Source: a virus (Duplodnaviria; Caudoviricetes). From it: a stretch of DNA of 58,525 nt. Numbering within the stretch: the first letter of the stretch is position 1; each line of letters opens with the position of its first letter. The translations under genes and the position numbers were made by a program. Below the pieces are notes generated by a model. It made no database searches. It was not told the origin of the DNA and saw only the letters and a list, made by a program, of their open reading frames with translations. Shown here in pieces: positions 14,481-29,888 of the stretch. The stretch is taken from positions 1-58,525 of the IMG/VR virus record IMGVR_UViG_3300021197_001797; one strand, given 5' to 3'.

Positions 14481-15995
14481 TTATTTTGAAAATAAATTCA
14501 ATCCATCGTTAACTATTTGTTCTGCCACATCTTTTTTATTCATTAAAGAGCCTATAACTGACATATCTATGGTTCCTTTCGCAGCAATGTTTATGTAAGT
14601 TACATTTTTCAATTGACCTATTCTGTGTGCTCGATCTTCAGATTGCAGACGATCTCTCAAACTAAAATTGTTGCTAAAGTATATGACGTAGCTTGCAGCA
14701 ACTAAAGTTATGCCTGTACCCCCAGCTTGTTGATTGCCAACAAAAACATTGGCATCGCCGTTTTCAAATGATTCAATAGTTTCAGTGCGACCATCTTTGT
14801 TGACACCACCGTGATATTCTACAGCCTCTATCTTTGCTAATTTCAAAGCCTGCACGATGTCTGCAATTTCTATACGGTAACGTGCCCAAACAATTACTTT
14901 TTCGCCTGATTCAACTATCTTTTTTACACGATCGACGAGCATTTCTAGTTTTGGATTTTTGCCTTCAATCCTGACAGGATTTTCTGCGAGAGGATGAATG
15001 TAGTATCCTGAAGTTATTTGCGCAAGTTTAGTAACAGCAACTAATTTCGTGAATGGCGTTTCTTCATTTTCAAAAACTATACGGCATTCGTTTTCAGCTT
15101 TTTTGTAAACTTTAGTTTGTTCTGGCGTCAAATCAAACACCATAGTTTTGTAAATTTTTTCAGGCAAATCTAAACAATCTTTTTTCAAAACTCTGAAACT
15201 GTGCGGAGCTATCAAACTAGACAGTTTGTCTAAGTTTTTGTATTTAGGTCTGCCACCTGCACCTTTTGCTACAACTTGTGGTTGTCCTCTGCCGCCAGTT
15301 CTTTGTTTGATGTGTTGTAAAAGTGGATTGTTGCCTTGCAACATTTCAGCATATTCTGATTTGAAAGCGTAAAAACTAGTCGTTTCTAATATGTCTCCAT
15401 GCAAAAAACTAAATTGACTGAACGCATCGAAAGGTGAATTGTTGATGGGTGTGCCAGACATTATTCTTCTCCAAGAAGCCAAATGTTTGAGTTTCATCAA
15501 ATTCCTGGTTCTTTTGGCGGTAGGATTCTTTACGCTGTCACTCTCGTCGCAAACAATCATGGCATTTTCACAATTTTCTAAAAAATTTTCTGCTTTCCAA
15601 CAACCTTTAGATGTTTGCAATGCTTCCCAATTCATAGTCAATATTTTCAAAGAACCGTCTTCACAATCATCTAACTCATCTAACTCTTCTTTTTCTTTTT
15701 TGCGGGGAGAAGCTGACCATGCAGCAGATTTGTATCGCACCCAGTCTGGCATGTGTTTGGGCAGTTCTAGCCTAGTCCAATTAGAGTGAACACCATTCGG
15801 CGCAAAAACAAGCAAGCCATCGCAGTCACCACTAGACCAAAGCTCTGCTGCATTATTTATTATTATCCAAGTCTTACCTGTCCCCATCTCAGCCAACAAA
15901 GCGAAATACTTTTTCCTGCCGAATGCATTTAAGCACTCTATTTGATGTCTGTAGGGTTTTGTTTTGAATTTAGAATGTTGCGCAAATTTTTCCAT
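14481..15995 (-). CDS. SNF2-family SF2 helicase
   Basis: AEMGTGKT Walker A, DESD Walker B, SGTPI, GGTGITL, QSEDRAHRIGQ. Confidence 0.93.
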   Translation of the reverse strand: MEKFAQHSKFKTKPYRHQIECLNAFGRKKYFALLAEMGTGKTWIIINNAAELWSSGDCDGLLVFAPNGVHSNWTRLELPKHMPDWVRYKSAAWSASPRKKEKEELDELDDCEDGSLKILTMNWEALQTSKGCWKAENFLENCENAMIVCDESDSVKNPTAKRTRNLMKLKHLASWRRIMSGTPINNSPFDAFSQFSFLHGDILETTSFYAFKSEYAEMLQGNNPLLQHIKQRTGGRGQPQVVAKGAGGRPKYKNLDKLSSLIAPHSFRVLKKDCLDLPEKIYKTMVFDLTPEQTKVYKKAENECRIVFENEETPFTKLVAVTKLAQITSGYYIHPLAENPVRIEGKNPKLEMLVDRVKKIVESGEKVIVWARYRIEIADIVQALKLAKIEAVEYHGGVNKDGRTETIESFENGDANVFVGNQQAGGTGITLVAASYVIYFSNNFSLRDRLQSEDRAHRIGQLKNVTYINIAAKGTIDMSVIGSLMNKKDVAEQIVNDGLNLFSK

Positions 15996-16390
15996 GCTTC
16001 TTTTTCCTTAACTGGTTTCTTAGTTTTCCACAAACATATGTTTGCAATTTCTTCTGTAGTCATTTCGTTTATTTCGTCAGCGTGCTCCCCACCAACTAAA
16101 ATCCATTGTTTATTTGTAACGATCAAAAAGTATGCGTTGCCTTCAGCTTTCATTTGTCTCAAAAACCAATTCTTTTGGTCTTGTGATATTTTATGATTAG
16201 AACCAAACAATTTGGTTGATTGTCTTTTTGGCTCTATAGGCGATTTTTGTTCTATCCAAGACTCTTTTCCTTCACTGCAAAAGTTTATGTCAGGCATTCC
16301 GGCCACGACGAAATTTTCTACTCTGTCTAATCGATCATTGCCTGTCGGCAAATTCTTTTTCAAAACTTTGTAATCATTGCTCTCTGGCAT
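15938..16390 (-). CDS. PD-(D/E)xK nuclease (VRR-NUC / Holliday junction resolvase-like)
   Basis: RVEN....GMPD....WIEQK, Q.NW; start reassigned to ATG 16390. Confidence 0.75.
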   Translation of the reverse strand: MPESNDYKVLKKNLPTGNDRLDRVENFVVAGMPDINFCSEGKESWIEQKSPIEPKRQSTKLFGSNHKISQDQKNWFLRQMKAEGNAYFLIVTNKQWILVGGEHADEINEMTTEEIANICLWKTKKPVKEKEAWKNLRNILNSKQNPTDIK

Positions 16391-19133
16391 CAATACGTTT
16401 CCATTTGGTGATGAAGGCAAATCGTATATCGTTGAAGAACTTTGCACGAACTAAAAGTTGAGCACCTTCAGGAACTCTTTCTAACAACTCACGCCCACAT
16501 CTTTCAAAATCAAATCTCCCGATCCTACCACCTATTTGTCCGCTGTCGTCTCTCAATCTTACGTCAACAAACTCTAATGGTCCGTAACCTATTTTACCAC
16601 CACGTTTCTTAACATTAACCTCTTCGTTGTAGTTTCGTGCATTCTTGTATATCATCTCACCTAAAAACACACGCTCTTCACGATGAGGGATGTTTTCTAA
16701 ATCTTTTATCTCAATAACAGGACTGGCAATGCCATTGTCTTGAGGATTTTCATACAAATGAGAATAATTATTGTGAAAAGGAAAAATATCGTAAAATGCA
16801 TTGCTGGCTTTTTCTATGTCCTCTTTCTGCTTGTCCGTCAAAGTGCCTTGATCTCTAGCTTCAATCAACTTGCTTGCTTTGCTGTCTCCTATGCCTTTCA
16901 AAGAAGTGAAACCGCCATACAACTTTCCTTCTTTCACGCACCAATTTTCTTCACTCTTCTCCAAATCAAAATGAACGTATTCAATACCTTCTCTGACCAT
17001 TTCACGCAACAACTCTACTGCGCTGTCCTCATCTTTTGCGTTGCGCAAATTTGCTGCAGCAAACTCTAATGGATGATGAGCTTTCAAATAAGCTGTCCAA
17101 TAACTTATAACTGCATAACTGTGTGTGTGTGCTTTGTTCATTTGCCAAGCACCCATGGCGTTAATAGTGTCCCATGTTTCTCTAGCTTCTATTTCACTTA
17201 TGCCTTGACTTTCTGCTCCTTGTTTGAATTTTTCCCAATAGGTGTCAAAGAATTCAACACCCATCCTTTTGCTCATGGCTTTTCTTATTGTGGAAGTTTC
17301 TGCCCAATCAAATTTTCCGATCTCACGGACAATGGCAAGTGTTTGCTCTTGATAAACAGGCAACCCATAAGTGTCTTTCATGTGCTCTTCAACCAACGGA
17401 TGGATAGATTTGTATTTTTCTCCATTTTTTCGATTCACATATTTTTCAGTAACACCTCCGCCAAATGGTCCAGGACGAGCAAGTGCTGTCACAGCATCGA
17501 CTTCGGTCAATGTTTTAAACTCTATGTCTCTGCTGATTGCTCTCAAAGCATTTCCTTCAAACTGGAAAATACCACAAAGTCTTCCTTGATTAAAAACGTC
17601 AAATGTAGATTTGTCGTCAAATTTCAATCCATACCAATCTATGTTTAAACCACTGTCTTCAAGCACGCCCAATGTGCGCAATCCTAAAACATCAATCTTC
17701 AAAAGACCCAGTTGTTCTGCAGCACCTTTTTCGATATGTGCTATCCCATCTGCATCGACAGTGGCGTAATTAGTTATTTCATCATTACAAACCAACAAAC
17801 CTGCGGCATGAACACCAGAGTGTGAAGCGTGACCTTCTAACAACATTGCGCTTTTTGCCTGTGGGTATTGTTTGATGAACTCTTTTCCAGGAGCTGTTTC
17901 ATTGAACGTGTCCTCAAGACAGTTGTTTGCTCTTGAGTCAGCTGATGACCTTTCTATCATGGCAACTTTCACTGCGCCAGTAGCTTGTGGCGGTATGTTC
18001 AAGCTCTTGCAAACTTGTATAAGTGCTGACCTCGGTCTGAACTGACCGATCGTACCTATGTGAGCAACATTTTCAGCTCCGTATTTTTCAGACATGTAAT
18101 CAAAAACCATTTGTCTTTTGTTGTCTGGGAAATCTAAATCTATGTCGGGCAAGTCTGTACGACTGACATCTATGAATCTTTCAAAATATAATTTGGCAGG
18201 TATAGGGTCTATCTCTGTTATCCTAGACAAATAACAAACTAGTGAACCTGCCGCAGAGCCTCTTGATGGACCAACCAACATATGATCTTTGGCATAATGA
18301 ACCATGTCTGCTACAACTACAAAATAACTCTCGTAATCTTTCAACTTGATCAAGTCTAGTTCGTAGTTCAATCGTTCTTCATATTCATCATTCCATTTCA
18401 TTTTCCTGAATTTTATGCCGTCCCTGCACATTTTCTCTAAACTACCTTTAGAGCGAACCATAGGAGCCTGAGGCAAATTCAAATCTTTGCATTCATCTGC
18501 TATTGCTATTGCTGTCGATTGGTTTTCTAACTCTTCTAACAAATGCTGTTCGCTGGCTTTCAAACCAGCTCTTGAAGCTAATTCAAATGTCTCTTTGTCT
18601 TCTGGAAAAGAATATGCGTTGTCTGAAGTGCTAACAACTTTCAAATCATGACTCTTAGCTATTTGCTTTTTCTTCATGTTCAAAATTCTGCTAGAAGGAT
18701 TCAAATCAATGACGGCATTGACTTCTTCCAAAAACTCTCCATCAACTACTTCGCCAGCAAATTTAATAATGTTTTCCGTCATTCCTAAAACGTCATGAGA
18801 GTAAAGCCTAGGAAGTGCTCCCACCCTAGTTTTAATGGTCTGCTGATGACTCTTGCTTTTCATCCTGTACATTTCGCTCAGACCCTGTTCGTTCTTGGCT
18901 AAGAACCACATTCTAGGAGTTGTTTCATCGTCAGAAACTACACATTCAACGCCCAAAATCGGGTTGATGTCTGCTTTCTTGCAAGCATTGTACCAAGCTA
19001 CATGACCCCAAGTCGAATTATCAACGATTCCTGCTGTAGTGCAACCGATAGATTTTAGACGATCGATGACCTTATTCAAAGGCGCAAATGTCTGACCAAA
19101 AGAATATTCTGTTTTGACCTTAAGCTGAATCAT
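16374..19133 (-). CDS. dnaE: DNA polymerase III alpha subunit (family C), phage-encoded
   Basis: GPSRGSAAGSLVCY, FERF, PDIDLD, HAAG, KIDVLGL, GIFQF, RPGP, VYQEQ, NKAH; N-terminal PHP domain lacks the usual His ligands. Confidence 0.97.
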   Translation of the reverse strand: MIQLKVKTEYSFGQTFAPLNKVIDRLKSIGCTTAGIVDNSTWGHVAWYNACKKADINPILGVECVVSDDETTPRMWFLAKNEQGLSEMYRMKSKSHQQTIKTRVGALPRLYSHDVLGMTENIIKFAGEVVDGEFLEEVNAVIDLNPSSRILNMKKKQIAKSHDLKVVSTSDNAYSFPEDKETFELASRAGLKASEQHLLEELENQSTAIAIADECKDLNLPQAPMVRSKGSLEKMCRDGIKFRKMKWNDEYEERLNYELDLIKLKDYESYFVVVADMVHYAKDHMLVGPSRGSAAGSLVCYLSRITEIDPIPAKLYFERFIDVSRTDLPDIDLDFPDNKRQMVFDYMSEKYGAENVAHIGTIGQFRPRSALIQVCKSLNIPPQATGAVKVAMIERSSADSRANNCLEDTFNETAPGKEFIKQYPQAKSAMLLEGHASHSGVHAAGLLVCNDEITNYATVDADGIAHIEKGAAEQLGLLKIDVLGLRTLGVLEDSGLNIDWYGLKFDDKSTFDVFNQGRLCGIFQFEGNALRAISRDIEFKTLTEVDAVTALARPGPFGGGVTEKYVNRKNGEKYKSIHPLVEEHMKDTYGLPVYQEQTLAIVREIGKFDWAETSTIRKAMSKRMGVEFFDTYWEKFKQGAESQGISEIEARETWDTINAMGAWQMNKAHTHSYAVISYWTAYLKAHHPLEFAAANLRNAKDEDSAVELLREMVREGIEYVHFDLEKSEENWCVKEGKLYGGFTSLKGIGDSKASKLIEARDQGTLTDKQKEDIEKASNAFYDIFPFHNNYSHLYENPQDNGIASPVIEIKDLENIPHREERVFLGEMIYKNARNYNEEVNVKKRGGKIGYGPLEFVDVRLRDDSGQIGGRIGRFDFERCGRELLERVPEGAQLLVRAKFFNDIRFAFITKWKRIDAREQ

Positions 19134-19674
19134 TTTCTATTCCAAACAACATGTTCAAGAAACCATCTTCTTTAGTGCACTCATATAGTGCGCGAACGTC
19201 GTCAAGTGCTCTGTGAGTTTGCAACAAAGGTTTGCCCATGACCTTTTCATAAAGTTCTGTCATTTTCGGTCTATGACCAAATTGTGGTGTGTATTCTTGC
19301 ACAGTGCAAATTATTTCTTCAGGCCAAGGAAAATCTGCCGAAAGTCTTTCAAGTTCACACCTCAAAACTCCACTGTCAAATGGAGCATTGTGCGCCATGA
19401 AAACATCTGTGCCATCGAAAAACTCTCTCAACTGGGGCAAAAACTCTTCAAATGTTGGTTTGTTTTGCAAATCTTCCTGTTTGATTCCAGTTATCTTTGT
19501 TATTACTTGTTCTAGTTCTACTTGAGGATCAAGGAGTTGACTCAACTCCCTGATTTCCCCTGTTTCATCAACGACAACTCCACCAAGTTCAATGATGTGT
19601 GGTTGCTTTTCAATTGGTGCCGCAGACGGCATCAAAAGACCTGTAGTTTCAACGTCGAAGACAGCTACTTTCAT
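19120..19674 (-). CDS. DEDDh 3'-5' exonuclease (DnaQ/epsilon-like)
   Basis: VFDVETTG, AHNAPFD, HRALDDV. Confidence 0.93.
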   Translation of the reverse strand: MKVAVFDVETTGLLMPSAAPIEKQPHIIELGGVVVDETGEIRELSQLLDPQVELEQVITKITGIKQEDLQNKPTFEEFLPQLREFFDGTDVFMAHNAPFDSGVLRCELERLSADFPWPEEIICTVQEYTPQFGHRPKMTELYEKVMGKPLLQTHRALDDVRALYECTKEDGFLNMLFGIENDSA

Positions 19675-20156
19675 TCTGGCTCCAGCCTAACTATGAACTT
19701 CAAATCAACACCTAAAATTTCTTTAGTGTCAAAAATAACATAATTGTACCACCTTTTACCTGCTATCACAGGGTTGGTGTGCGATTGAGTCTTTACTTCT
19801 TGCGCTACAGGTATATTCCTTTCAGCGAAAAAGTTACGCCAACCTATCAATTCTTTGCCTGAACAATGCATGCCTAAATGACTGACGGTGTTCCGGCCAC
19901 GACCGAGAGTGTCTACCCAGTTGTTGCCCTCTTTGTAATTCAATATTTCAAACTCTTTGCCTTCAATGAGATCATAATTGAAATTCAAATCAGCTTGGTT
20001 TTCACCTTTTTTGCCGAACACCTTGCCAGAAGCAACAACTGTGTCCTCGACCCAATCAATTGCTCCCATGTCTTCTAATAATTTTCTTGCTTTTTCGACG
20101 TTTGCAGGCGCGATAGCTATTTGTTCTATTTTGAAATTCAACATGTCAGGCTCCAT
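19671..20156 (-). CDS. VOC/glyoxalase-superfamily protein (methylmalonyl-CoA-epimerase-like)
   Basis: IEQIAIA..NVEKARKLL..MG, EFEIL.Y, HLGMH, YVIFDT...LG..LKFI follow the paired beta-alpha-beta-beta-beta pattern. Confidence 0.65.
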   Translation of the reverse strand: MEPDMLNFKIEQIAIAPANVEKARKLLEDMGAIDWVEDTVVASGKVFGKKGENQADLNFNYDLIEGKEFEILNYKEGNNWVDTLGRGRNTVSHLGMHCSGKELIGWRNFFAERNIPVAQEVKTQSHTNPVIAGKRWYNYVIFDTKEILGVDLKFIVRLEPE

Positions 20157-20814
20157 AAGGTAAGATGCACCCAGTGAGGTGCTTGTGATGATCTTTTGAC
20201 TGCAATAAGAAAGCTATGAACTCAGCTACTTTTTCGGGTGGTGTTTCTTCCCCACACAAAAGACCTTGGAGCTGATACTCCTGAGCGTATTCTTTAGTCC
20301 AACCACGAGTTGTTACAACTTGATCATCAATTGCAGCACTCATTCCTGTGCCTTTCAATTTGTTAGGAGCTATGCCGAAAACAGTTATGCCGTATTTCTT
20401 TGTTAGTTCACGAGCCAACTGCAACGTCATTATATGTGCCGCACCTTTGGAAGCATTGTAAGCTAAAGAGCAAGTCATTGGCATGTGAGATGCATTGCTC
20501 ACGATGTTCAAAACAGTGCCTTTGCTTTCTTTCAACATAGGCAAGTAAGCTTGAACCATTTTGAAAATGCCTTTAGCATTGACGTTTATTACTTGATCCC
20601 AAGCTTCATCAGTGAAATCTTCCAGCCAATCTATCAAGTTTATCCCTGCGCAATTTATCAAAACGTCCAGCTTTTCACAAGCTAACTTAGGTTCCAAAAC
20701 ATCTTGTCCATAGTTCCGGTCATAACCTATGACTTCATGATTTTCTTTTTCCAAAGCTTCATATATAGCCTTGCCCAGACCTTTTGCAGCTCCAGTTACT
20801 AATATCGTGCTCAT
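20146..20814 (-). CDS. Short-chain dehydrogenase/reductase (SDR)
   Basis: TGAAKGLG, NCAG, catalytic Ser, YNASK. Confidence 0.93.
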   Translation of the reverse strand: MSTILVTGAAKGLGKAIYEALEKENHEVIGYDRNYGQDVLEPKLACEKLDVLINCAGINLIDWLEDFTDEAWDQVINVNAKGIFKMVQAYLPMLKESKGTVLNIVSNASHMPMTCSLAYNASKGAAHIMTLQLARELTKKYGITVFGIAPNKLKGTGMSAAIDDQVVTTRGWTKEYAQEYQLQGLLCGEETPPEKVAEFIAFLLQSKDHHKHLTGCILPYGA

Positions 20815-21113
20815 TTGTCTTTTCCTTTTCCATTGATCAAAGACTCCACCATTGCGGCATAAACTGCGGCATCGTGTATGCTGTCTTCATGAGTTAAATT
20901 ACTATTTGTGAAACGAGTCAATTTTACTATCATCAATTCAAAAAGATGCCAGATGTTATAATCCTCGACAGTTTTTAATTCTACCCCATCAGGGAATAAA
21001 ACACTCATCACTTCACCAACTCTTTTGTAGTTGTCTCCGTAAACTTTATTTCTTTCACGAAATGTTTCCCCCATTTCGACGAGGATCGATCCGGCATCTT
21101 TGAATTCATTCAT
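20811..21113 (-). CDS. Nmad1/DUF1599/DUF6378-like all-alpha nucleotide pyrophosphatase-like protein
   Basis: ERNKVYG ... KLTR ... HEDSIHDAAVY pattern. Confidence 0.6.
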   Translation of the reverse strand: MNEFKDAGSILVEMGETFRERNKVYGDNYKRVGEVMSVLFPDGVELKTVEDYNIWHLFELMIVKLTRFTNSNLTHEDSIHDAAVYAAMVESLINGKGKDK

Positions 21114-21592
21114 TTAATCACCCTCAAGTTTGGTTTCTTAGTTGCGTCTACTTTGTGAATAGATATACAATGAGCATTGATTCCATTTGCAATATACATG
21201 TCACAGACATCTTGACGGTCATCGTAAGCAAAGGCAACATCTTCACTTGTTGCTTTCATCCTTTGATAAAATAATTGTAGTTGCATCCTCTTCAAATAAG
21301 GTGAGCTAGAATGATCGCCATTTGGTCTCATCAAAAGACAACAAACTTCAAGACCGATTTCTTTCAACCAATGTTCAGCGATTGGAGCATAGAACTCTGG
21401 CCGTGCCGTAAAAATTGCAACATCCTCATACCTTTCTCTCCAAATGTGTTCATTGGCACTCTTGTCAAAGCCAGCAAGCAAATGATAAGCATTGTATTTC
21501 CAAGTTGGATCAGACTCGTCCCAATTTATTTTAGGTATCCTCCAACGGTCATCAGAAATAGTATTGTCAAGATCGAGGATTATGTAACTCAT
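21110..21592 (-). CDS. HAD-superfamily phosphatase (T4 PNK phosphatase-domain-like)
   Basis: LDLDNTI, FTARP, LLMR, YDDR. Confidence 0.85.
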   Translation of the reverse strand: MSYIILDLDNTISDDRWRIPKINWDESDPTWKYNAYHLLAGFDKSANEHIWRERYEDVAIFTARPEFYAPIAEHWLKEIGLEVCCLLMRPNGDHSSSPYLKRMQLQLFYQRMKATSEDVAFAYDDRQDVCDMYIANGINAHCISIHKVDATKKPNLRVIK

Positions 21593-22317
21593 TTCTTTTT
21601 CTCCTCTTTGCGCATCTTGTCAACGATCTTCAACAGCTTGCCTTTGGCTAACAAATCTCCGCCATATTGTTCTTCAGCGAATGCTTCAATTTCAGCGAAA
21701 TAATCTCTGCCTTGTTGAAACAAAAACTTTTCAGCCCATGGGTGCACAGACAAAACTTCATCAACCATGCCGTTCAACACCTTTTGATATTCACCCTGAG
21801 TTCGACCGCCTGTCCTCGCCTTGGCAAGTTCGACGAACGTACGCAAATTGAATTTGCAAACTATGTTGGTTGATATGTTTGTAGGCAGAACACCCCTAGC
21901 ATCTTCAACTGCATGGCCCATGTTGATCAAACCTGTGTAAGCTAATTTTATAGCGTCAAGTGCTTCATCAACTATTTTCACCGCTACAGGGTCTGCAGCA
22001 ATTTTGTCGCTGTAGATATAATCAAACTCAAACATGTCTAAAACACGCATGGTTTGTTGTGCGTAACTAGCCTGTCTAGTCCTGACTTGTTGGTGGGTGT
22101 AAGCACGACTGACACCTTCTACTAAAAAGACATAGTCCACAAACTCCCAAGAGCTAGGTATAGTGTTGGCCATGTACTCCAACTCATCCATCTTTTCTTG
22201 ATGTGGTCTTTCTTTTATTTCTTCCATCAAAGAAGGTGACATTGTGAGCCTAGTGGCTTTGGTGAACATCAAAATGTCTTGGGCATCTTGAGTGTGGCTT
22301 ATCAAAGTTACCTTCAT
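21589..22317 (-). CDS. thyX: Divergent flavin-dependent thymidylate synthase (ThyX-like)
   Basis: GVSRAYTHQQVRTR.ASYAQQTMR, EDARGVLP, NLR, Q.E; canonical RHRx7S reads RTRx7T. Confidence 0.8.
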   Translation of the reverse strand: MKVTLISHTQDAQDILMFTKATRLTMSPSLMEEIKERPHQEKMDELEYMANTIPSSWEFVDYVFLVEGVSRAYTHQQVRTRQASYAQQTMRVLDMFEFDYIYSDKIAADPVAVKIVDEALDAIKLAYTGLINMGHAVEDARGVLPTNISTNIVCKFNLRTFVELAKARTGGRTQGEYQKVLNGMVDEVLSVHPWAEKFLFQQGRDYFAEIEAFAEEQYGGDLLAKGKLLKIVDKMRKEEKKK

Positions 22318-22874
22318 GATGTTGCTCCCTCTTGAGGATGGGAATAATTTTCACTTGGCAAACTCTTGAAAGCACTTTCAGTTATCAATTTGAAATTGAA
22401 AACTTTGTATCTATTTTCTCTGTCAATGCAATTTAACATGCCTGTGTGAAATTTGTACTCACCTTTGTCTTTCAACTTTTGTCGGAACCTTATGTGAGCA
22501 CCTAATGAAAAACCTAAATCTTCAAACGCAACTTTGACAGATTTGTAATACCTAACCACGCCATCAGGACACTCTACAACAACACCGTGTCGCTTGGCTC
22601 TCTTTGCGCGAACTTCAGGGTCTTGCCAACTGCGAATAGCCACGGAAACTCGGTGTCGTGCTTGAGTTGCTTCCTCTTCGTTGCGTCTTCTTTTCAACTC
22701 CATGTCGCACCAATGCATGTCTCCCTGTTTGGAAGCTCTGGCTTTTTCAAGCTGTTTCTCGCCATTGGCTCTTGAAGAAAACTTCTTGATTTGCTTCTTC
22801 ATAATGGCGTTATACTCTGCGACCATTTCAGCGGTTGACATTTTGCTGACTTCTTTATATTCAAATCTAGACAT
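22314..22874 (-). CDS. Hypothetical basic protein, possibly DNA-binding
   Basis: AGGAG SD; YKSVKVAFEDLG..HIRFR C-terminal motif; coupled to the thyX-like gene. Confidence 0.6.
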   Translation of the reverse strand: MSRFEYKEVSKMSTAEMVAEYNAIMKKQIKKFSSRANGEKQLEKARASKQGDMHWCDMELKRRRNEEEATQARHRVSVAIRSWQDPEVRAKRAKRHGVVVECPDGVVRYYKSVKVAFEDLGFSLGAHIRFRQKLKDKGEYKFHTGMLNCIDRENRYKVFNFKLITESAFKSLPSENYSHPQEGATS

Positions 22875-22886
22875 AATAAATCTCCT

Positions 22887-22918
22887 AAAAAAAGAAAACC
22901 CCGCTCAAAGAGCAGGGC
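22887..22918 (-). terminator. Intrinsic terminator
   Basis: Minus strand GCCCTGCTC-TTT-GAGCGGGGT followed by TTTCTTTTTTT. Confidence 0.8.
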
Positions 22919-23264
22919 TAACACGTTTCGCATATTTTAATTTGAAGTCTTTGTAACCAGAATCATACTCTGGACCTTCATCAATTTCGTCCAACCAATG
23001 TTCTTCAGTGACGACATCAGCAGGGAACTCTTTCAATTCAAGGCAGTTGATCGCGAACTTGGCCATCACAAACGCCATGGCGTCTGCGGCACTATGTACA
23101 CCCGAAACGATGTAGTCAGTACCACTCTTGAATTTCCAGTAAGCTTGTCCGTCAGAAAATTTTCCGGTTGACTCGTCGTCATGCGCACCATAATTTTCGA
23201 GGAGTTGAGTTGAAACCACCCAGTTGTGGCCCATTCCAGCGGTGTTGTTTAAATCTTGTCCCAT
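22905..23264 (-). CDS. Conserved-looking hypothetical phage protein
   Basis: TQ..ENYGAHD ... YWKFK.G..YIV motif; has its own promoter and terminator. Confidence 0.7.
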   Translation of the reverse strand: MGQDLNNTAGMGHNWVVSTQLLENYGAHDDESTGKFSDGQAYWKFKSGTDYIVSGVHSAADAMAFVMAKFAINCLELKEFPADVVTEEHWLDEIDEGPEYDSGYKDFKLKYAKRVSPAL

Positions 23265-23330
23265 TTTATTTCTCCAGTTCTAAGTTTATCAATTCCTTAC
23301 TATCGCTCTTTGAGGACTATAAGGCAACAC
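23265..23330 (-). promoter_or_regulatory. Sigma70-type promoter with conserved AACTTAGAA leader (copy 2)
   Basis: TTGCCT (23327-23322), 17 bp, GATAGT (23304-23299); AACTTAGAA at 23286-23278, then GGAG SD. Confidence 0.78.
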
Positions 23331-24222
23331 TTATTTTTGCTCTTTCGTATTTTATATTGTTTTTCATCAATTTCTTCAAAACATTGATGTCTTTTAATAC
23401 GTCATCCAACAACAAATTTCTCCAAGTGCCAAACCTGCCTAAAGAATAAATGTTGTGGTTTATGGACAGATCATAAATAAAACTTTTTCTCCAATCGTCA
23501 TTGATGGGGGCAATCTTGCCGTGTCGTTGATTTGACTTTTCTATTTTGACGCAATCATTTCGACTTATGCCGAACGATTGAAAGAAATTGTATTCATCTG
23601 GCTCATCAATGTATTCTGCTATCAAAAGATCTTTAGTTATGCTTGCCCTATATAAAGATGTCGCTGGACTGGGATAATAGATCGTTTGGTAAACATTTGC
23701 ATCTTTGATCCTGAACCGTTCGACGACGATAGGCGCAGAGTTAAACTCTGGCCAATGCAACGCTACTTGTTTTATACCCAACATCTCGCCTGTAACCATC
23801 ATAGGAATGGTGCTAATGGCAGGTACAGAAGAGTCTTTCATTTCTTCAGGAGTAACTTTGTGATTCCACTTAACTCTTCCCTCACACTTTTCTGCTAGCT
23901 CTAACAAAAAGTCTTCAGGTGCAATGAACCGTTCTACTGTTTCTAAGTTCCAAATGCTACGGTCAGCTAACCTGCCTATGACTTTCTCTGAATACCAATT
24001 TGCGTAACGTATGTTTGGCTCAACAAAATCACCGTCCCATATGCCTTTGTGGACTTTTACTTTGTCGAAATCTATGCCGACACTTTCGCCTACTTCATTA
24101 GACCGAAAACGCAAAACAGCTTTGTGTGACTGATTTAACTTGTCTCCAGCTTCGTATATCGTAGCTCGCTGAAAGTGACAACCAGCCAACAGACCAGCAA
24201 GACCTGCTCCATAAATTTTCAT
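23317..24222 (-). CDS. FAD-dependent oxidoreductase-fold protein (UDP-galactopyranose-mutase-like termini)
   Basis: N-terminal KIYGAGLAG..IYE dinucleotide fold; C-terminal IYSLGRFGTW. Confidence 0.75.
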   Translation of the reverse strand: MKIYGAGLAGLLAGCHFQRATIYEAGDKLNQSHKAVLRFRSNEVGESVGIDFDKVKVHKGIWDGDFVEPNIRYANWYSEKVIGRLADRSIWNLETVERFIAPEDFLLELAEKCEGRVKWNHKVTPEEMKDSSVPAISTIPMMVTGEMLGIKQVALHWPEFNSAPIVVERFRIKDANVYQTIYYPSPATSLYRASITKDLLIAEYIDEPDEYNFFQSFGISRNDCVKIEKSNQRHGKIAPINDDWRKSFIYDLSINHNIYSLGRFGTWRNLLLDDVLKDINVLKKLMKNNIKYERAKISVAL

Positions 24223-24249
24223 AAAGACATCCTTATTAATTTCTTTTTT

Positions 24250-24278
24250 AGTATTGATCAGTCTTCAAAAGAAAGCAA
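24250..24278 (-). promoter_or_regulatory. Leftward sigma70-type promoter
   Basis: TTGCTT (24278-24273), 17 bp, AATACT (24255-24250). Confidence 0.6.
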
Positions 24279-24303
24279 GTAATTTTTTGTTGGCAAAAAT
24301 AGT

Positions 24304-24332
24304 TTGCCTTTTTTATAAAATTCGAGAATAAT
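24304..24332 (+). promoter_or_regulatory. Rightward sigma70-type promoter (divergent pair)
   Basis: TTGCCT (24304-24309), 17 bp, AATAAT (24327-24332). Confidence 0.65.
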
Positions 24333-24396
24333 AAAAGAGCTGGAAATGATGAAGGCATTTTGCAAGACTGTTCCAGCACAGAAAGGAAAACTAAGA

Positions 24397-24807
24397 ATGG
24401 CAAAAGTGTACATTACTCAGGTTCCGCACAAACATGACAGGGAAACCGATACATTTGTCCCTGCCGTAAACATCTCTCCGGCAACTGAACATGGAGAGTT
24501 GGTAATAATGATGCCACCTCGTACGTCTTTTTATGCTACCGTTGATTTAGTTAAAATGCTCAGCGAAAAGTTGAAAGACTATAGTTACGAAAATGGTGAC
24601 AGCATTGTTTCCATGGGTGACCCATCGGTGATTGCCGTTGCGTTTGCCTTGTTGGGCAGGATCCATGGTCGTTTTGTTGTGTTGAAATGGGACAAGAATG
24701 TTGGTAGATATCTGCCAGCTCATGTTTCGGTTCTGGAGTTCCAAACAGCAAGCGAAAAGTTAACAAATAAAATGATTGCTGAAGGTCAGAAAAGGAAAAA
24801 GAAATGA
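24397..24807 (+). CDS. Conserved hypothetical alpha/beta protein
   Basis: AAGGA SD; G.L..MMP, GDP..I, LKWD...RY motifs; start reassigned to ATG 24397. Confidence 0.7.
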   Translation: MAKVYITQVPHKHDRETDTFVPAVNISPATEHGELVIMMPPRTSFYATVDLVKMLSEKLKDYSYENGDSIVSMGDPSVIAVAFALLGRIHGRFVVLKWDKNVGRYLPAHVSVLEFQTASEKLTNKMIAEGQKRKKK

Positions 24808-25070
24808 AAGTTTATTACGTAGATGGTCCAGGCGTCAGGACCAAAAACTATTGGACGGTGAAAGAGGCAAGAGCTGAGGCGAAGCAAATGAATTACCCTC
24901 CACTCTCGTCGGTCATAGAGATGAAAGTTGTCGGACAAAGCAACATCGCTGAAAGTCTTTTCAATTTTCTGAACAATGACAGGACAATCAAAAACGGATC
25001 GGAAAGAACCGTACGTTATCTCGGCAGCCCAAAGCAACTTGAGAAATGGGAAAGCGAGGACGTTGCATGA
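24804..25070 (+). CDS. Hypothetical protein
   Basis: ATGA overlaps at both ends. Confidence 0.65.
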   Translation: MKVYYVDGPGVRTKNYWTVKEARAEAKQMNYPPLSSVIEMKVVGQSNIAESLFNFLNNDRTIKNGSERTVRYLGSPKQLEKWESEDVA

Positions 25071-25570
25071 TATCCTTAGATGAAATGGCCTCACTCGCAA
25101 GAGTTATGGCCGAGGCAGAAGACGCTGTCCGACAACAGGAAGCATCTTTGAAAGAAGCAAAAGAAAAGGCGCGACGATTGCGTGAAGAAACTATCCCTGC
25201 CGCAATGCAAGAGTTGGGGATAGATAAACTCGAGCTGAACACTGGAGAAAAAATAAGTGTCAGCCAAGAAGTTTATGCTTCAATACCTAATGAACACAGA
25301 GACGACGCATTCCGATGGCTGAACGACAATGGCTTTGGTGGTTTGATCAAAGTTGGAGTCTCTTCAAGCTACGGCAAAGGCGAACAGTCCAAGGCTATGG
25401 AGTTGTTCCAAGAACTTCAAGAGCGAGGTCTGAATGCAAAGTTCGATGAAGGTGTTCATCCGCAGACGCTCAAAGCATTTTTGAAAGAGCAAATCTCTAC
25501 TGGTGCTAATGTGCCATTAGATCTATTCGGTGCTCGTCCTGTTTGGACAGCTAAAATCAAAAAGTCATAG
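25067..25570 (+). CDS. Conserved phage replication-module protein
   Basis: N-terminal coiled coil, IP.AM.ELG, AF.WL..NG.G.LIK, VHPQTLKAF; start ATG 25067. Confidence 0.75.
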   Translation: MISLDEMASLARVMAEAEDAVRQQEASLKEAKEKARRLREETIPAAMQELGIDKLELNTGEKISVSQEVYASIPNEHRDDAFRWLNDNGFGGLIKVGVSSSYGKGEQSKAMELFQELQERGLNAKFDEGVHPQTLKAFLKEQISTGANVPLDLFGARPVWTAKIKKS

Positions 25571-25580
25571 GAGAAAAATC

Positions 25581-26351
25581 ATGGCTAAGAAAAATCAAGT
25601 AGCTAAAAAAGAATCAAATACAGAAGTCAGTTTCATGGAAGACATGTTAGAAGATGCAGGCATGGGGCTAGAAAACGCAGACAAAGACTCGTTTGCCATT
25701 CCATTCTTGACGGTGCTTCAAGGTCTTTCACCACAGCTAGAAAGCATTGACGGTGCAAAGCCTGGACTCATAATCAATACGATAACCGAGGAACTGCACA
25801 AGGAGGTCATGGTTGTGCCTTGCGCTTATCAACGCAGGTATTTGCGTTGGGCTCCACGTGAACTCGGTGGTGGCTATCGTGGAGATCATTCACCGATCGA
25901 AGTTGATTCAGGACAGCTGGCCGGAGTTAAACGTGATGACGATGGAGTCTTGACGATCGAAGGTGACGTATTAAAAGACACCCGAAATCATTTCTGCATG
26001 GTGCAGAGTGAATCAGGCGGTTGGCAACCTTGTTTGTTGTCTCTTTCTTCAACACAAATCAAAAAGTCCAAACGATGGATGTCTTTGATACAAGGTGTTG
26101 AAAGCAGAACTCCAGCAGGCAAGGTGTTCACACCACCCTCGTTTGCTAACATCTACAAGCTGTCAACGTTAAAAGAAGAAAACTCAAAAGGATCTTGGTG
26201 GGGTGTTAAGATAGAACTTGATGGCCCAGTCGCTGAACAAGAACTTTATCAAAAAGCTCGTGACTTTTCCAAACAAGTCATGGCCGGAGAAGTTCAAGTT
26301 TCAGAACCGATAGAAGAAACTCCTGAGAAAACTTTTGAACCACCGTTCTAG
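25581..26351 (+). CDS. Putative single-stranded DNA-binding protein
   Basis: IPFL.VLQ.LSPQ, STQIKKSKRW, N.KG.W; acidic tail ending EPPF; AGGAG SD. Confidence 0.6.
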   Translation: MAKKNQVAKKESNTEVSFMEDMLEDAGMGLENADKDSFAIPFLTVLQGLSPQLESIDGAKPGLIINTITEELHKEVMVVPCAYQRRYLRWAPRELGGGYRGDHSPIEVDSGQLAGVKRDDDGVLTIEGDVLKDTRNHFCMVQSESGGWQPCLLSLSSTQIKKSKRWMSLIQGVESRTPAGKVFTPPSFANIYKLSTLKEENSKGSWWGVKIELDGPVAEQELYQKARDFSKQVMAGEVQVSEPIEETPEKTFEPPF

Positions 26352-26365
26352 GTTTTTGTCGAACA

Positions 26366-26389
26366 TGGGTCTGTCACTCGGCAGACCCA
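26366..26389 (+). promoter_or_regulatory. Stable hairpin just upstream of the primase RBS
   Basis: TGGGTCTGTC-ACTC-GGCAGACCCA, no U tract; SD AGGAG at 26394 and TTG start at 26406. Confidence 0.5.
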
Positions 26390-26405
26390 AAGCAGGAGAA
26401 GTAGT

Positions 26406-28565
26406 TTGGAAAAAATTCACAAAGCTGCAATAACTTATGCCAACATGGGTTGGATGATCTTCCCTCTCCATTCAATAGATAAAGATGGCATATGTACTTG
26501 CGGCAATGCAACTTGCAGTGATGCAGGCAAGCACCCCAGAGTTCAACGAGGGTTGAAAGAAGCATCAAGAGACTTGGAGCAAATAGACAAATGGTTTGGG
26601 CCAGACGCTCCATTGAGCAACATAGGCATAGTCACAGGCGAAATATCCGGCATCACCGTTATTGATATAGATATAGGCGAAGGTAAGTTTGGTGCAGAGT
26701 CATGGCAAGAGGCTATAAAGGATCATGGAGAACCAAACACCCTAATGGCGCAAACAGGGTCAGGAGGCATGCACGTAATATTTAAGTACAACTCTGCCAT
26801 CAAGACTGCTAGCAATGTTCTAGGCAAAGGCGTAGACTCTCGCAACGATGGCGGTTACATAGTTGGTGCTCCTAGCTTGCATCGTTCTGGTGGAGTTTAC
26901 GATTGGATCAACTGGGACAATGAAATAGCCTCTTTGCCTTCACATCTTTCAAGAAGAAAAGAAAATAGAGGCAGACCAAAAAAAGACGACATGTATCGAG
27001 GCAAATATACTATCGAACAAATAACAGCAATGCTTGAAGTCATACCTGCTGATGATCGAGACTTGTGGCGGTCCATTGGTATCATTTTGGGCAGAGAGTT
27101 TGATCGTGTGGATGAAGCTTGGTTAGCTTATCAACAATGGTCTGAAAAGTTCGACGGTAAAAAAGGACGCAACCACGACACAATAATGCATGAGGCTTTT
27201 TACGAACTGTCTCAACAAAACTCTGACAAACAATTAACTGTCGGAACAATAGTCAAAGCTGCATTGGACAATGGTTGGGCTCCTAAGAGCGGTGAAGTGC
27301 CTCTCGGCAATTTCATTTTCTATGGTCCAGGAAACAATTACATTTACCGTCCAACTAATAGCTTTTGGATTGGTGCTGCAGTCGACAGTGCTGTTTCGCC
27401 TGTCAATGACAGTGGGGCGTTGATGAAAGCTTCTGACTGGGTACGCAAGAATGTCCTCGTAACTTCTATGACTTCTGATCCGAGCGTTGATGAAGATCAC
27501 ATGAAAGGATATGATTGTAGAGACGGTGAGATTGTCAAATCTCCTGGTGCTGCATTGTTCAATGCTTACCGACGACCGACGATCGAGTTAGGTGTTCCGA
27601 AGATGGCCAAGCCATTCATCGATCACGTGCACAAGGTGTTCGACAAAGATGGAGACGCTGATCAGTTTTTAAACTACATAGCTCATCGCGTTCAAAAGCC
27701 ATGGGAGAAACCTAGATTTGCTTTGCTCATTGCTGGCGGTCAAGGCGTAGGCAAAGACACTGCCGTAGAGTTTTGCTCTCCAGCCATTGGTCCATGGAAT
27801 GTTTCAAACATAGACCCAAGTGCATTTGAACAAGGTTTCAATGAATATGCTTCGTCAACTCTCGTAAGAATATCTGAAGCTGCAAACCTACACGAAATGT
27901 CTAAGTGGGCGTTCAATGAAAGAACTAAAGTGCTCATAGCTGGCTCTCCGGACACGTGTCAAATCAATCCAAAGTATGGACAGAAGTATTCTGTGCGGAT
28001 GTATTGCGGGGTCATCATAACGACCAATCATTTGGCCAATGGCATCTACATTCCTGAAGACGATCGACGCTATGACGTAATTGATTGCGCTACAATGCAA
28101 GACATGGGTCTTGCTCATGAAGACAAACGACGAGACTATTTCACTGAGCTTTGGGATTGGTTTTACGATGATGGCGCGAGTCACATTGCAGCTTACCTTC
28201 ATGAACATGACATCTCTAAATTTAATGCTTCCAACGGTCAACGAAAGACGGACGCACACAAGACAGTCGTCGCTGGGGGAATGCATGGAGACCAATGGCT
28301 GGACGACATCCTTGACGATATGAGCTACCCCAAAGCTGTGCGATCGGATTGGGTCATCACCAAAGCAATAGCCAATGGAGAAAAAGAAGGTGATGTTAAA
28401 AGAAAATTAGTTAACTCAATGGGAAGGAGTGGATACGCAATGCATCGTTCTGAACGCAAGGACGGTAGATGGAAGATAAACTCTAAGATAGCTACTGTCT
28501 ATACTAAAGTAGGCACAGACAAGTCTTATGATCCAACAGAGGAATTGAGCAATGAACCGTTCTAG
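26406..28565 (+). CDS. Bifunctional primase-polymerase (Prim-Pol) + PriCT-2 + SF3/DUF5906-type helicase
   Basis: CTCG...C...GKHP, NIGIVTG, IDID, TGSGGMH, GGYIV.APSLH.SG; Walker A GGQGVGKD; ITTN; DDRRY. Confidence 0.92.
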   Translation: MEKIHKAAITYANMGWMIFPLHSIDKDGICTCGNATCSDAGKHPRVQRGLKEASRDLEQIDKWFGPDAPLSNIGIVTGEISGITVIDIDIGEGKFGAESWQEAIKDHGEPNTLMAQTGSGGMHVIFKYNSAIKTASNVLGKGVDSRNDGGYIVGAPSLHRSGGVYDWINWDNEIASLPSHLSRRKENRGRPKKDDMYRGKYTIEQITAMLEVIPADDRDLWRSIGIILGREFDRVDEAWLAYQQWSEKFDGKKGRNHDTIMHEAFYELSQQNSDKQLTVGTIVKAALDNGWAPKSGEVPLGNFIFYGPGNNYIYRPTNSFWIGAAVDSAVSPVNDSGALMKASDWVRKNVLVTSMTSDPSVDEDHMKGYDCRDGEIVKSPGAALFNAYRRPTIELGVPKMAKPFIDHVHKVFDKDGDADQFLNYIAHRVQKPWEKPRFALLIAGGQGVGKDTAVEFCSPAIGPWNVSNIDPSAFEQGFNEYASSTLVRISEAANLHEMSKWAFNERTKVLIAGSPDTCQINPKYGQKYSVRMYCGVIITTNHLANGIYIPEDDRRYDVIDCATMQDMGLAHEDKRRDYFTELWDWFYDDGASHIAAYLHEHDISKFNASNGQRKTDAHKTVVAGGMHGDQWLDDILDDMSYPKAVRSDWVITKAIANGEKEGDVKRKLVNSMGRSGYAMHRSERKDGRWKINSKIATVYTKVGTDKSYDPTEELSNEPF

Positions 28566-28938
28566 TACATTTGATCCTTTTGATCCCAACAACAGAGACA
28601 AAAGAAAAAGACGCACCAAGGCGCAAGTTGTAGCAGATCAATTAGCTTGGGAGTCGTCATTAGACAATGCCTTCAAGACTGTTTTGCAAGAACAACATTG
28701 GCCTAAGATTGTTCAAGGTGATTTGCTCTTGGAAGACTCTGCAGGCTATCACGATAACTATTATGCCCTGAGAAGAAACATCAGCTCCTGCATGCAACGT
28801 CTTGGCTATGAACTGGTGCAGAACCCTAACTCAAAAGACGGCAGGTGGAAGGCATTCTCAAAGAGTGTTTCTGTTTACAAAAAAATAGGGTCGCAAGGTT
28901 GGTGCCTCACGACCCTGAAGAAAGAATTAGATTGGTAG
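28552..28938 (+). CDS. Protein paralogous to the primase-helicase C-terminal domain
   Basis: MQRLGY..KDGRWK..SK...VY.K.G matches MGRSGY..KDGRWK..SK...VY.K.G of the upstream gene. Confidence 0.75.
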   Translation: MNRSSTFDPFDPNNRDKRKRRTKAQVVADQLAWESSLDNAFKTVLQEQHWPKIVQGDLLLEDSAGYHDNYYALRRNISSCMQRLGYELVQNPNSKDGRWKAFSKSVSVYKKIGSQGWCLTTLKKELDW

Positions 28939-28939
28939 C

Positions 28940-29143
28940 TTAAAACATTTCATCAACGTAGGTCACCTCTATTTCATGGTCGTAAATATGTTCTGGATCG
29001 TTCTTTACCAATTGAAGCAACTCCTTCAATGTGATCGTGTCAGTGAAATAATCCTCTGCTTCAGAACGTGTTTTTGCAAACTTTGCAACTTGAATTTTTA
29101 ACGTAACATCTACGCCAACTTGAAAATACTTTGCGACTCTCAT
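28940..29143 (-). CDS. Hypothetical protein
   Basis: TGATG overlap with upstream gene; GAGGAG SD. Confidence 0.65.
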   Translation of the reverse strand: MRVAKYFQVGVDVTLKIQVAKFAKTRSEAEDYFTDTITLKELLQLVKNDPEHIYDHEIEVTYVDEMF

Positions 29144-29625
29144 CAGCTTTCTCCTCTGGGGTTTTTGATTCGGTAAATCATGTCAACTCTGCATGCACGA
29201 CCTTTGGTCCAGTCATGGTTGACGCCGTCAACTACAGCACCCATGTGCTGTCTGGTGTGAAGCAAATAGTTGTGGCCGTCTTTCCATACGTTAGGGAAAC
29301 GATCCATGTGGTGGGTTGTGACGTTCTTCAACTTGTCACAGTGACCTTTGGGGTACTGCTTGATGAAATCGCTTGGCCTGACTATCTCGGTTTCAACGCC
29401 TAACTCTTTCAGTGCTTTTGTCCACTGGTAGCCCCATGTGCCTTTGCCGTTCTTGCGACCTTGCTCGGCTAAAGCCTCGTGAACTTCTGGATAAGGAATG
29501 TTGCAAGCTAATGAGATGGCCATCACAACACAGTCGTTGTTCTCGTTCCACATGGCCCGTGACTCGCGTCTCATGTCTCCGTAGACGGCAGTCTGGCGAC
29601 GATCTTCTCTGTTAATTCTACCCAT
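29143..29625 (-). CDS. Papain-like / peptidase C39-like protein
   Basis: NDCVVMAISLA (Cys at helix start), HMGAVVDG..HDW (His, Asp). Confidence 0.55.
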   Translation of the reverse strand: MGRINREDRRQTAVYGDMRRESRAMWNENNDCVVMAISLACNIPYPEVHEALAEQGRKNGKGTWGYQWTKALKELGVETEIVRPSDFIKQYPKGHCDKLKNVTTHHMDRFPNVWKDGHNYLLHTRQHMGAVVDGVNHDWTKGRACRVDMIYRIKNPRGES

Positions 29626-29688
29626 TTTTCTTTCTCCGGTTCTAAGTTATGAAAGTACTATGCCTGAACATTACACATAAGGCAACAT
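29626..29688 (-). promoter_or_regulatory. Sigma70-type promoter with conserved AACTTAGAA leader (copy 3)
   Basis: TTGCCT (29685-29680), 17 bp, CATAGT (29662-29657); AACTTAGAA at 29648-29640, then GGAG SD. Confidence 0.78.
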
Positions 29689-29869: not shown

Positions 29870-29888
29870 AGGGCTGTTAAGTTTTAAC

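Follow-up and report, generated by a model that had tools for sequence, protein, structure and literature searches.

A phage subfamily of ThyX proteins without the histidine/tyrosine network of flavin-dependent thymidylate synthases, and its possible role in thymidine hypermodification

Flavin-dependent thymidylate synthases (ThyX) work through a flavin relay: a carbon bound to flavin N5 is passed to uracil C5, giving an exocyclic methylene which is then reduced by the reduced flavin (PMC8989533; PMC8316439). As reported in one of these sources, ThyX can also use free formaldehyde, via a flavin carbinolamine which is consumed more slowly by the variants S88A, R90A and Y91A (PMC8316439). The signature of the family is RHRx7S (Myllykallio et al., 2002, as cited in PMC2826268). 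The present work deals with a ThyX gene of a tailed phage (Duplodnaviria; Caudoviricetes) that departs from this signature, located at positions 21589-22317, minus strand, of IMG/VR record IMGVR_UViG_3300021197_001797. Hereafter, "the window" means the whole stretch of DNA that was analysed, that is, the 58,525 bases of this record.

The active site of canonical ThyX has been described in the following terms (PMC6514825): (i) the RHR residues hydrogen-bond the phosphates and the ribityl chain of flavin adenine dinucleotide (FAD); (ii) FAD is additionally bound by the serine of the H-x-S segment and by one more arginine; (iii) in the Mycobacterium tuberculosis and Helicobacter pylori enzymes, deoxyuridine monophosphate (dUMP) is bound by five residues, namely four arginines and the motif serine; and (iv) a tyrosine acts as a lid over uracil C5 and flavin N5. 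In Thermotoga maritima ThyX, H53 stacks on folate and on the reduced flavin, with Y91 and N85 holding it in place, and mutation of Y91 makes flavin oxidation approximately 1000-fold slower (PMC11940539).

The open reading frame (ORF) of interest can be summarised as follows:
21589-22317, minus strand: virus-type ThyX, 242 amino acids (aa), supported by Pfam Thy1, an AlphaFold (AF2) model and structure neighbours

This ORF contains HQQVRTRQASYAQQTMRV (residues 75-92) and TIPSSWEF (residues 52-59), that is, RTRx7TxRV and TIPSSWEF where canonical ThyX has RHRx7SxRY and GHxSxxEH. At the RHRx7S signature itself it reads RTRQASYAQQT, with His replaced by Thr and Ser by Thr. Residues were mapped by aligning a profile of 54 subfamily members to the solved T. 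maritima (Tm) and M. tuberculosis (Mtb) ThyX chains. With respect to Tm, the replacements are H53 by I53, H59 by F59, H79 by T80, N85 by A86, S88 by T89 and Y91 by V92, and the late "SH" histidine is R172. The residues kept (phage number in brackets where it differs) are E58, Q75 (Q76), R78 (R79), R80 (R81), R90 (R91), R147 (R141) and R174 (R168), together with the equivalents of R165 and of the FAD-contacting serine. Equivalents of the FAD contacts, as placed by alignment only, are R79, R81, S55/S56 and R159 (Mtb R190), and those of the dUMP contacts, placed in the same way, are R71, R79, T89, R91 and R168 (Mtb R87, R95, S105, R107 and R199). A first-pass annotation of this DNA had reported the replacement of the motif His, the Ser, the following Tyr and the upstream His, as well as the retention of Gln and Arg residues tied to dUMP and FAD binding; the profile alignment bears out all these replacements and retentions. 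Judging from the sequence, then, the protein keeps the predicted FAD- and dUMP-binding residues and lacks the entire H53-N85-Y91 network, which is here I-A-V and hydrophobic.

Regarding its fold, Pfam Thy1 (PF02511) aligns with residues 4-194 over the complete profile (1-191 of 191; E 8.7e-32; 110.9 bits, cut-off 24.8), and PHROG thymidylate-synthase families are matched as well. The AF2 model, built on 54 relatives, has a predicted local distance difference test (pLDDT) of 92.3 and a predicted template modelling score (pTM) of 0.82, and superposes (VIA) at Z 16.2-19.1 on all 47 ThyX/PolB entries listed, the next best chain having a Z of 3.4. Canonical ThyX from T. maritima (TM0449) and M. tuberculosis is found at Z 18-19, with a root-mean-square deviation (rmsd) of 2.4-2.8 over approximately 200 residues; identity to solved ThyX structures is approximately 20%. 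The structure prediction proposed in the first-pass annotation has hence returned a confident ThyX fold and, at the level of the model, the assignment is secure. PolB (PDB 4P5A/4P5B), a UMP/dUMP C5-methylase of polyoxin biosynthesis in which the ThyX fold serves a secondary pathway and substrate use has changed, shares the place of best neighbour with ThyX structures (Z 19.1, rmsd 2.2 over 197 residues), and its sequence is matched by the subfamily profile (E 1.3e-10). However, PolB is bacterial and still a reductive methylase and, to our knowledge, has no flavoprotein partner. On the NCBIfam thyX equivalog model TIGR02170 (cut-off 87.9 bits), the phage protein scores 83.8 bits and ORF59 of Pseudomonas phage F8 scores 87.8 bits, both below the cut-off, while canonical phage ThyX proteins score 185.5 and 232 bits. 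An artefact or a pseudogene was considered and ruled out: the ORF is intact, the full profile is covered and the motif state is kept in 119 of 120 close homologues.

Only one Thy1 gene is present in the window. Members of the ThyA family (PF00303) were found in none of eight distinct records, that is, the window's complete record and seven related phages including F8 and 14-1; the same search was positive in 10 of 14 reference genomes used as control. Since no ThyA-family gene is found in these eight records, the variant ThyX is the sole recognisable enzyme in them able to place a carbon on uracil C5.

A word-indexed search returned 3067 homologues; the best 120 of them include 109 with RTR, 10 with RSR and one without the motif, and all 119 motif-bearing members of this set continue with Thr and then Arg-Val (R[T/S]R..T.RV). 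When representatives at 50% identity were searched exhaustively, 2269 hits were obtained (E up to 0.001). Likewise, 88 related loci were compared, namely 80 IMG/VR loci (51-98% identity) and eight named phages, a set biased to relatives of the window's protein, with the named phages spanning distant genera; the residue at the His position (80) is T, S or N in 86 of them and P in one, and one locus has no recognisable motif. The first-pass annotation spoke of a rewritten active site. These sequences indicate that the enzyme is not individually rewritten: the variant motif is what is normally found throughout a large phage subfamily, whose members number in the thousands.

The variant was found in Pbunavirus, Wifcevirus, Carpasinavirus, Kylevirus, Ss1-like phages and Rhizobium phages. 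Named carriers include Ralstonia phage PY059YO380 (the nearest cultured relative, 74% identity, where the gene is annotated as hypothetical), Rhizobium phage RHph_Y65, Cronobacter phage Ss1, Vibrio phage VA-RY-3, Xanthomonas phage XcP1, Escherichia phage Bas99, Pantoea phage Kyle and Pseudomonas phages JG024, F8 and 14-1. ORF59 of the three Pbunaviruses F8, 14-1 and JG024, named "FAD-dependent thymidylate synthase", and its Wifcevirus, Carpasinavirus and Kylevirus homologues belong to the same subfamily (38-45% identity) and have the same motif state (THQLVRTRTGAYQQETSRA, TI[RK]SPFEF). Within this group, the XcP1 and Bas99 proteins (XcP1, L005 6001-6759; Bas99, L006 6001-6810) differ from the window's protein and its close relatives by a C-terminal extension with several conserved cysteines, possibly a metal site; with 305 aa in Pbunavirus and 277 aa in Kyle, these proteins likewise exceed the window's protein in length. 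The canonical phage ThyX proteins of Staphylococcus phage MVC_VPHSA2, Haloarcula phage HCTV-8 and Bacillus phage Wes44 retain GH.S..EH, RHR and SQRY.

Residues were counted over 119 aligned full-length rows, of which 105 are representatives (200-320 aa) and 14 are proteins of named phages, with the following result:
Position 53: I in 97 rows, V in 8, L in 7 and H in 2 (I/V/L in 112 of 119)
Position 80: T in 75 rows, H in 23, N in 9 and S in 7
Position 89: S in 71 rows, T in 32 and A in 14
Position 92: V/I/T/A/L/M in 105 rows, Y in 6 and F in 5 (non-aromatic in 108 of 119)
Position 172: R in 98 rows, K in 10, Q in 7 and H in 1

R79, R81, R141 and R168 are kept in 115-118 of these rows (R79 in 118, R141 in 117), and the FAD-contact arginines in 113-118. 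As for the motif Ser, its replacement by T89 is real, but the emphasis given to it in the first reading was excessive, Ser to Thr being conservative and both residues being common at position 89.

Trees rooted with MVC_VPHSA2, HCTV-8 and Wes44 were built with FastTree (119 rows) and with IQ-TREE in quick mode (116 rows, the long-branch rows P0269, P0225 and P0224 having been dropped). In this phylogeny, of the kind that had been suggested as a check, the virus-type rows form one group (support 93), and RTR itself is recurrent, with nine changes of the His state at position 80 on both trees, at least five of them forced by well-supported branches. Furthermore, 23 of the 119 rows retain the RHR histidine and already have I/V/L at position 53 and, mostly, a non-aromatic residue at position 92. 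The step from RHR to RTR was rejected as the decisive change on account of these RHR-retaining rows, already without H53 and mostly without an aromatic residue at 92. It is, as read from the trees, a late and recurrent change whose effect is probably mild, because Thr, Ser and Asn are still able to hydrogen-bond. The older, wider and defining change is the loss of the His/Tyr network (H53, Y91).

A single-protein scan of prokaryote genomes, which covers close relatives only, found two loci, both on short contigs of metagenome-assembled genomes. One of them contains the flavoprotein described below, ThyX, DUF6378, SDR, exonuclease and DnaE; the other, which ends approximately 340 bases past ThyX, contains the flavoprotein, ThyX and the start of HAD. 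This suggests that both loci are binned phage DNA; as a test of virus restriction the scan is weak. Actinophage "ThyX-like" proteins, such as those of Microbacterium phage Anakin (439 aa; L092 2123-4245) and Gordonia phage Suzy (378 aa; L093 2902-4038), represent an intermediate type with RQR or RTR, no H53, Phe at the Tyr position and long insertions. In Anakin, a gene annotated as "oxidoreductase" lies immediately upstream of the ThyX-like gene, and the flavoprotein profile does not detect it.

Upstream of the variant ThyX, the following gene is found in the window:
23317-24222, minus strand: FAD/NAD(P)-binding flavoprotein, 301 aa (phrog_4828, 1.9e-81; N-terminal GxGxxG)

All 62 loci that extend at least 4 kb upstream of ThyX encode the flavoprotein on the ThyX strand, with a median gap of 467 bp. 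Its profile matches all five whole records with variant ThyX that were searched and none of five whose ThyX is canonical or of the actinophage type, and the flavoprotein is absent from the three canonical ThyX phage records searched. Its linkage to the variant ThyX is, in short, obligatory, and in this the variant differs from canonical phage ThyX. At the sequence level, the flavoprotein has no Pfam match even at E 10, no NCBIfam match and, in the PDB, only a chance-level one (E 1.2). Its predicted model (pLDDT 83.6) is closest to UDP-galactopyranose mutases (UGMs), at VIA Z 17.0-17.7, with 280-287 of 301 residues aligned, an rmsd of 3.6-3.8 and 10-16% identity. It shares with them a UGM-like predicted fold and has the N-terminal GxGxxG motif for FAD binding, but it is shorter (approximately 300 aa versus 390-510 aa in UGMs). 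Protoporphyrinogen oxidases (Z 15.5-16.5) and amino-acid and amine oxidases (Z approximately 15) are the next neighbours. Because these oxidases follow UGMs within 1-2.5 Z units, the model supports membership of the superfamily alone.

The variant ThyX lies in a one-strand block formed by the flavoprotein, two small ORFs, ThyX, HAD, DUF6378, SDR, a VOC-like gene, exonuclease and DnaE polymerase, the last two being immediately downstream of the cassette. Apart from ThyX and the flavoprotein, the block comprises:
22905-23264, minus strand: ORF of unknown function, 119 aa (no family match; homologue in 1 of 88 loci, not conserved in the cassette)
22314-22874, minus strand: protein of unknown function, 186 aa, between the flavoprotein and ThyX (phrog_4730; homologue in 52 of 88 loci)
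21110-21592, minus strand: HAD-family phosphatase of the PNKP phosphatase-domain type, 160 aa (PF25109, 27.9 bits, cut-off 27.6; phrog_415, 7e-17)
20811-21113, minus strand: DUF6378 protein, 100 aa (PF19905, E 1.7e-5, 25.4 bits, below the cut-off of 27.1; phrog_4889, 4e-31)
20146-20814, minus strand: SDR (FabG-like), 222 aa (PF00106, 7.8e-36; phrog_3142; below every NCBIfam equivalog cut-off)
19671-20156, minus strand: putative VOC/glyoxalase-like protein, 161 aa (Atlas feature search 0.92-0.97, 18 of 30 hits in Glyoxalase_4 clusters)
19120-19674, minus strand: 3'-5' exonuclease (phrog_192, 1.5e-41)
16374-19133, minus strand: DnaE-type DNA polymerase III alpha (phrog_405, 1.6e-225)

The VOC-like protein has no Pfam, PHROG or NCBIfam match, and its label is a lead only. 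In the 65 loci with at least 4 kb downstream of ThyX, HAD was found in 57, DUF6378 in 61, SDR in 43, the VOC-like gene in 39, the exonuclease in 64 and the DnaE polymerase in 63. The ORF59 group shares the upstream flavoprotein and the downstream HAD/DUF6378, exonuclease and DnaE polymerase, with HAD fused to DUF6378 in Pbunavirus, Wifcevirus and XcP1; in Pantoea phage Kyle, the DUF6378 homologue is annotated as "pyrophosphatase". Pbunavirus cassettes differ from that of the window in lacking the SDR and VOC-like genes, and the Bas99 (Wifcevirus) cassette is full, with both genes included.

A possible role for this cassette is suggested by data on Pbunavirus DNA. According to a preprint (Yee et al., 2025; PMC12191111), the DNA of phages F8 and 14-1 contains sugar-like thymidine derivatives of 362 and 390 U, which amount to approximately one quarter of T and occur in a TG context, and F8 virion DNA is resistant to the five tested enzymes with TG in their sites. 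The available text of this preprint names no biosynthetic genes, and the words "ThyX" and "thymidylate" each appear 0 times in it. In both phages, the variant ThyX is accompanied by the flavoprotein and by a fusion of HAD to DUF6378, and ThyA is absent. The window shares with them the core of the candidate cassette (variant ThyX, flavoprotein, HAD and DUF6378 beside exonuclease and DnaE), with phmmer E-values against the F8/14-1 genes of 2.5e-38 to 5.5e-39 for ThyX, approximately 1e-57 to 3e-58 for the flavoprotein, 9e-6 to 4e-8 for HAD and approximately 1e-14 to 6e-14 for DUF6378. By mass arithmetic, 362 and 390 U correspond to 5-hydroxymethyl-deoxyuridine plus erythritol or pentose minus water. 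Carbon-linked products fit equally: deoxyuridine with a reductively attached pentose (pentitol-yl) gives 362.3, and deoxyuridine with a C-linked hexosyl gives 390.3. As a separate observation, 25.4% of T in the window is followed by G, which is near the fraction of T modified in F8 and 14-1.

In other phages, of the M6, ViI and SP10 type, dUMP 5-hydroxymethyltransferases belong to the ThyA family, and it is a ThyA-type enzyme that installs the C5 carbon from which thymidine hypermodification is built (PMC8989533). The same role, that of placing the first carbon on dUMP C5, is hypothetically proposed here for the variant ThyX, although the two folds are unrelated and a Cys nucleophile operates in ThyA-type enzymes versus a flavin relay in ThyX. 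In the literature searched, no paper was found linking ThyX to phage thymidine hypermodification, or describing the virus-type subfamily or assigning a role to it. Tet/JBP dioxygenase (PF12851) was detected in none of five records, but its control likewise matched nowhere, which makes that search uninformative.

The tentatively favoured reading, held at slightly less than an even chance, is that the variant ThyX makes a product other than deoxythymidine monophosphate (dTMP) which feeds thymidine hypermodification. Its support comes from the lost lid and gate, the obligatory flavoprotein, the score short of the equivalog cut-off and the findings in Pbunaviruses, and PolB offers, by analogy, a precedent of a ThyX-fold enzyme with other substrates. 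The enzyme would be a flavin-dependent, dUMP-binding C5-transferase of a virus-restricted ThyX subfamily, working with the upstream UGM-like flavoprotein. Reduced FAD would still form an N5 one-carbon adduct and hand the carbon to dUMP C5; with the Tyr91 lid and the H53-N85-Y91 gate missing, simple reduction of the exocyclic-methylene intermediate to dTMP might not follow, and a C5-functionalised deoxyuridylate would be released, the simplest one being 5-hydroxymethyl-dUMP formed by water capture. The neighbours (flavoprotein, HAD and DUF6378, here also SDR and the VOC-like protein) would then convert it to a hypermodified thymidine of the F8/14-1 kind. The final product here may differ from that of Pbunaviruses, because these lack the SDR and VOC genes. 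The first-pass proposal of a protein that still binds flavin and a uridylate but may use another donor or catalyse another reaction is a fair reading of the conserved FAD/dUMP contacts and the missing folate His and Tyr lid; nothing computed shows, however, that donor or product differs. Several other points weigh against an altered product. No biochemical or genetic result ties any member of the subfamily to modification, and the Yee et al. result is a preprint. Approximately three quarters of T in F8 and 14-1 are ordinary, so the phage still needs dTMP, and TG specificity points to a DNA-level step, beyond a mononucleotide enzyme; with ThyX chemistry unchanged, the modification would be accounted for by a flavoprotein that hydroxylates T within DNA. 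A true synthase needs its dUMP and FAD contacts, and all of these are retained here; in Rhizobium jumbo phages the variant is found alongside dUTPase and ribonucleotide reductase, the classical dTMP-supply set. Gene order is partly generic, because canonical phage ThyX genes likewise adjoin MazG-like pyrophosphatases and polymerases. The PHROG scan of 53 window ORFs revealed no dNMP kinase that could act on a modified dUMP. Finally, 6-mer palindromes in the window have observed/expected ratios of 0.85 with TG/CA (n=16) versus 0.74 without (n=48), those with TG/CA being slightly less avoided, as TG-context protection would predict (Mann-Whitney one-sided p 0.048; 15 versus 31 words with an expectation of at least 5), a marginal result of a comparison of low power.

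Many of these points speak for an ordinary dTMP synthase, an explanation only slightly less probable than the favoured one, in which the His/Tyr gate has become hydrophobic, flavin reduction has maybe been handed to the flavoprotein as an NAD(P)H-dependent reductase, and modification is carried out by other, DNA-acting genes. The full-length Thy1 match and the ThyX fold agree with it, as does the retention of FAD and dUMP contacts at 107-118 of 119 rows per position; it is the sole thymidylate-synthase-like gene in the complete window and seven relatives, and it sits in a replication module beside a polymerase, like canonical phage ThyX. Given the role described for RHR, Thr, Ser or Asn at the His79 position could still hydrogen-bond the FAD phosphate or ribityl, and the loss of H53 could reflect outsourced reduction, since the NADPH site overlaps the flavin site in the complex with NADP+ (PMC6514825). 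The co-occurrence of ribonucleotide reductase and dUTPase in Rhizobium phages and, as far as the preprint goes, the mostly unmodified T and the TG specificity of F8/14-1 are expected as well. Nevertheless, a substitution of Y91 that costs approximately 1000-fold in T. maritima (PMC11940539) sits oddly with 108 of 119 members being non-aromatic there. The score below the thyX equivalog cut-off also counts against a plain synthase, and such an enzyme has no known need for a UGM-like partner, yet the linkage is 62/62 and the three canonical ThyX phages have none. Besides, the Pseudomonas, Escherichia coli, Xanthomonas and Rhizobium hosts have their own ThyA. It is unlikely that the substrate is a different pyrimidine nucleotide (UMP, dCMP or a nucleotide sugar), in the manner of PolB, or that the protein is a non-catalytic flavin- or nucleotide-binding subunit of the flavoprotein. 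PolB is structurally as close as any ThyX, the nearest folds of the flavoprotein are UDP-sugar-binding mutases, and the proposed general-acid and lid residues are missing; but a conserved counterpart exists for each of the five dUMP contacts of M. tuberculosis/H. pylori ThyX, the strong purifying selection seen at the active-site arginines R79 and R141 speaks against inactivity, and the cassette accompanies DNA functions, not RNA or cell-wall ones. Similarly improbable is a two-flavoprotein system in which ThyX and its UGM-like partner would take the carbon from a sugar carbonyl and not from methylene-tetrahydrofolate. In UGM chemistry, flavin N5 forms an adduct with the ring-opened sugar C1. 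In the phage system, sugar C1 would be joined directly to deoxyuridylate C5 to give a C-C-linked polyhydroxyalkyl- or C-glycosyl-deoxyuridine, with the sugar then trimmed by the HAD phosphatase and by the SDR and VOC-like enzymes. Free formaldehyde is already an accepted carbon source of ThyX (PMC8316439). A carbon coming from sugar instead of folate would explain the loss of the folate-stacking His, and by arithmetic such products fit the published masses as well as O-linked 5-hydroxymethyl-deoxyuridine adducts do.

As regards the genome as a whole, the window is a complete phage genome (58,525 bases; CheckV completeness 100) with terminase, portal, head and tail genes and a replication module, according to the PHROG scan. 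The last ORF (57103-58525) reads in frame across the window ends into 1-701, giving 708 aa with a single terminal stop; the record is therefore a circularly closed or permuted genome, despite its linear classification. The 708-aa product is a paralogue of that of the next gene (701-2887, 728 aa): 57103-58525 and 701-2123 are 88.1% identical, with the first approximately 500 aa 89.5% identical and the C-terminal approximately 200 aa diverged. Both paralogues match virion-structural and tail-fibre PHROGs, and they look like two tandem tail-fibre-like genes with different tips. Other genes worth mentioning are (i) a ferredoxin-like auxiliary gene (38555-39244; phrog_3704, 6.5e-26) and (ii) a GroES-like co-chaperonin gene (39848-40279; phrog_3188, 3.8e-12), both between portal and head genes; and (iii) an acyl-CoA N-acyltransferase-like gene (3117-3566; phrog_4470, 9.3e-21), amid tail and structural genes. 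A megablast search of window positions 15000-30000 against phage records gave no match. In the whole window, the dinucleotides TA and CG are depleted (rho 0.69 and 0.70) and TG/CA enriched (rho 1.24), and GGTACC has 0 copies versus 6.7 expected.

In any case, thousands of phage genes, including those of phage-therapy Pbunaviruses and of E. coli Wifceviruses, are named "thymidylate synthase" by databases on fold alone. If the product of the variant ThyX is indeed other than dTMP, the flavin relay of ThyX would have an outcome not seen before, the hypermodified thymidine reported for Pbunaviruses in 2025 would gain the first enzyme that it lacks, and the hitherto unexplained restriction resistance of Wifceviruses would be accounted for; the combination of I53, a non-aromatic residue at 92, R172 and a flavoprotein neighbour would then be a marker for modified DNA in uncultivated phages. 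If, on the other hand, the variant is a plain synthase, His53 and Tyr91, which are treated as mechanistically central in T. maritima ThyX, would be dispensable, with a bearing on both the mechanism of these enzymes and the design of ThyX inhibitors.

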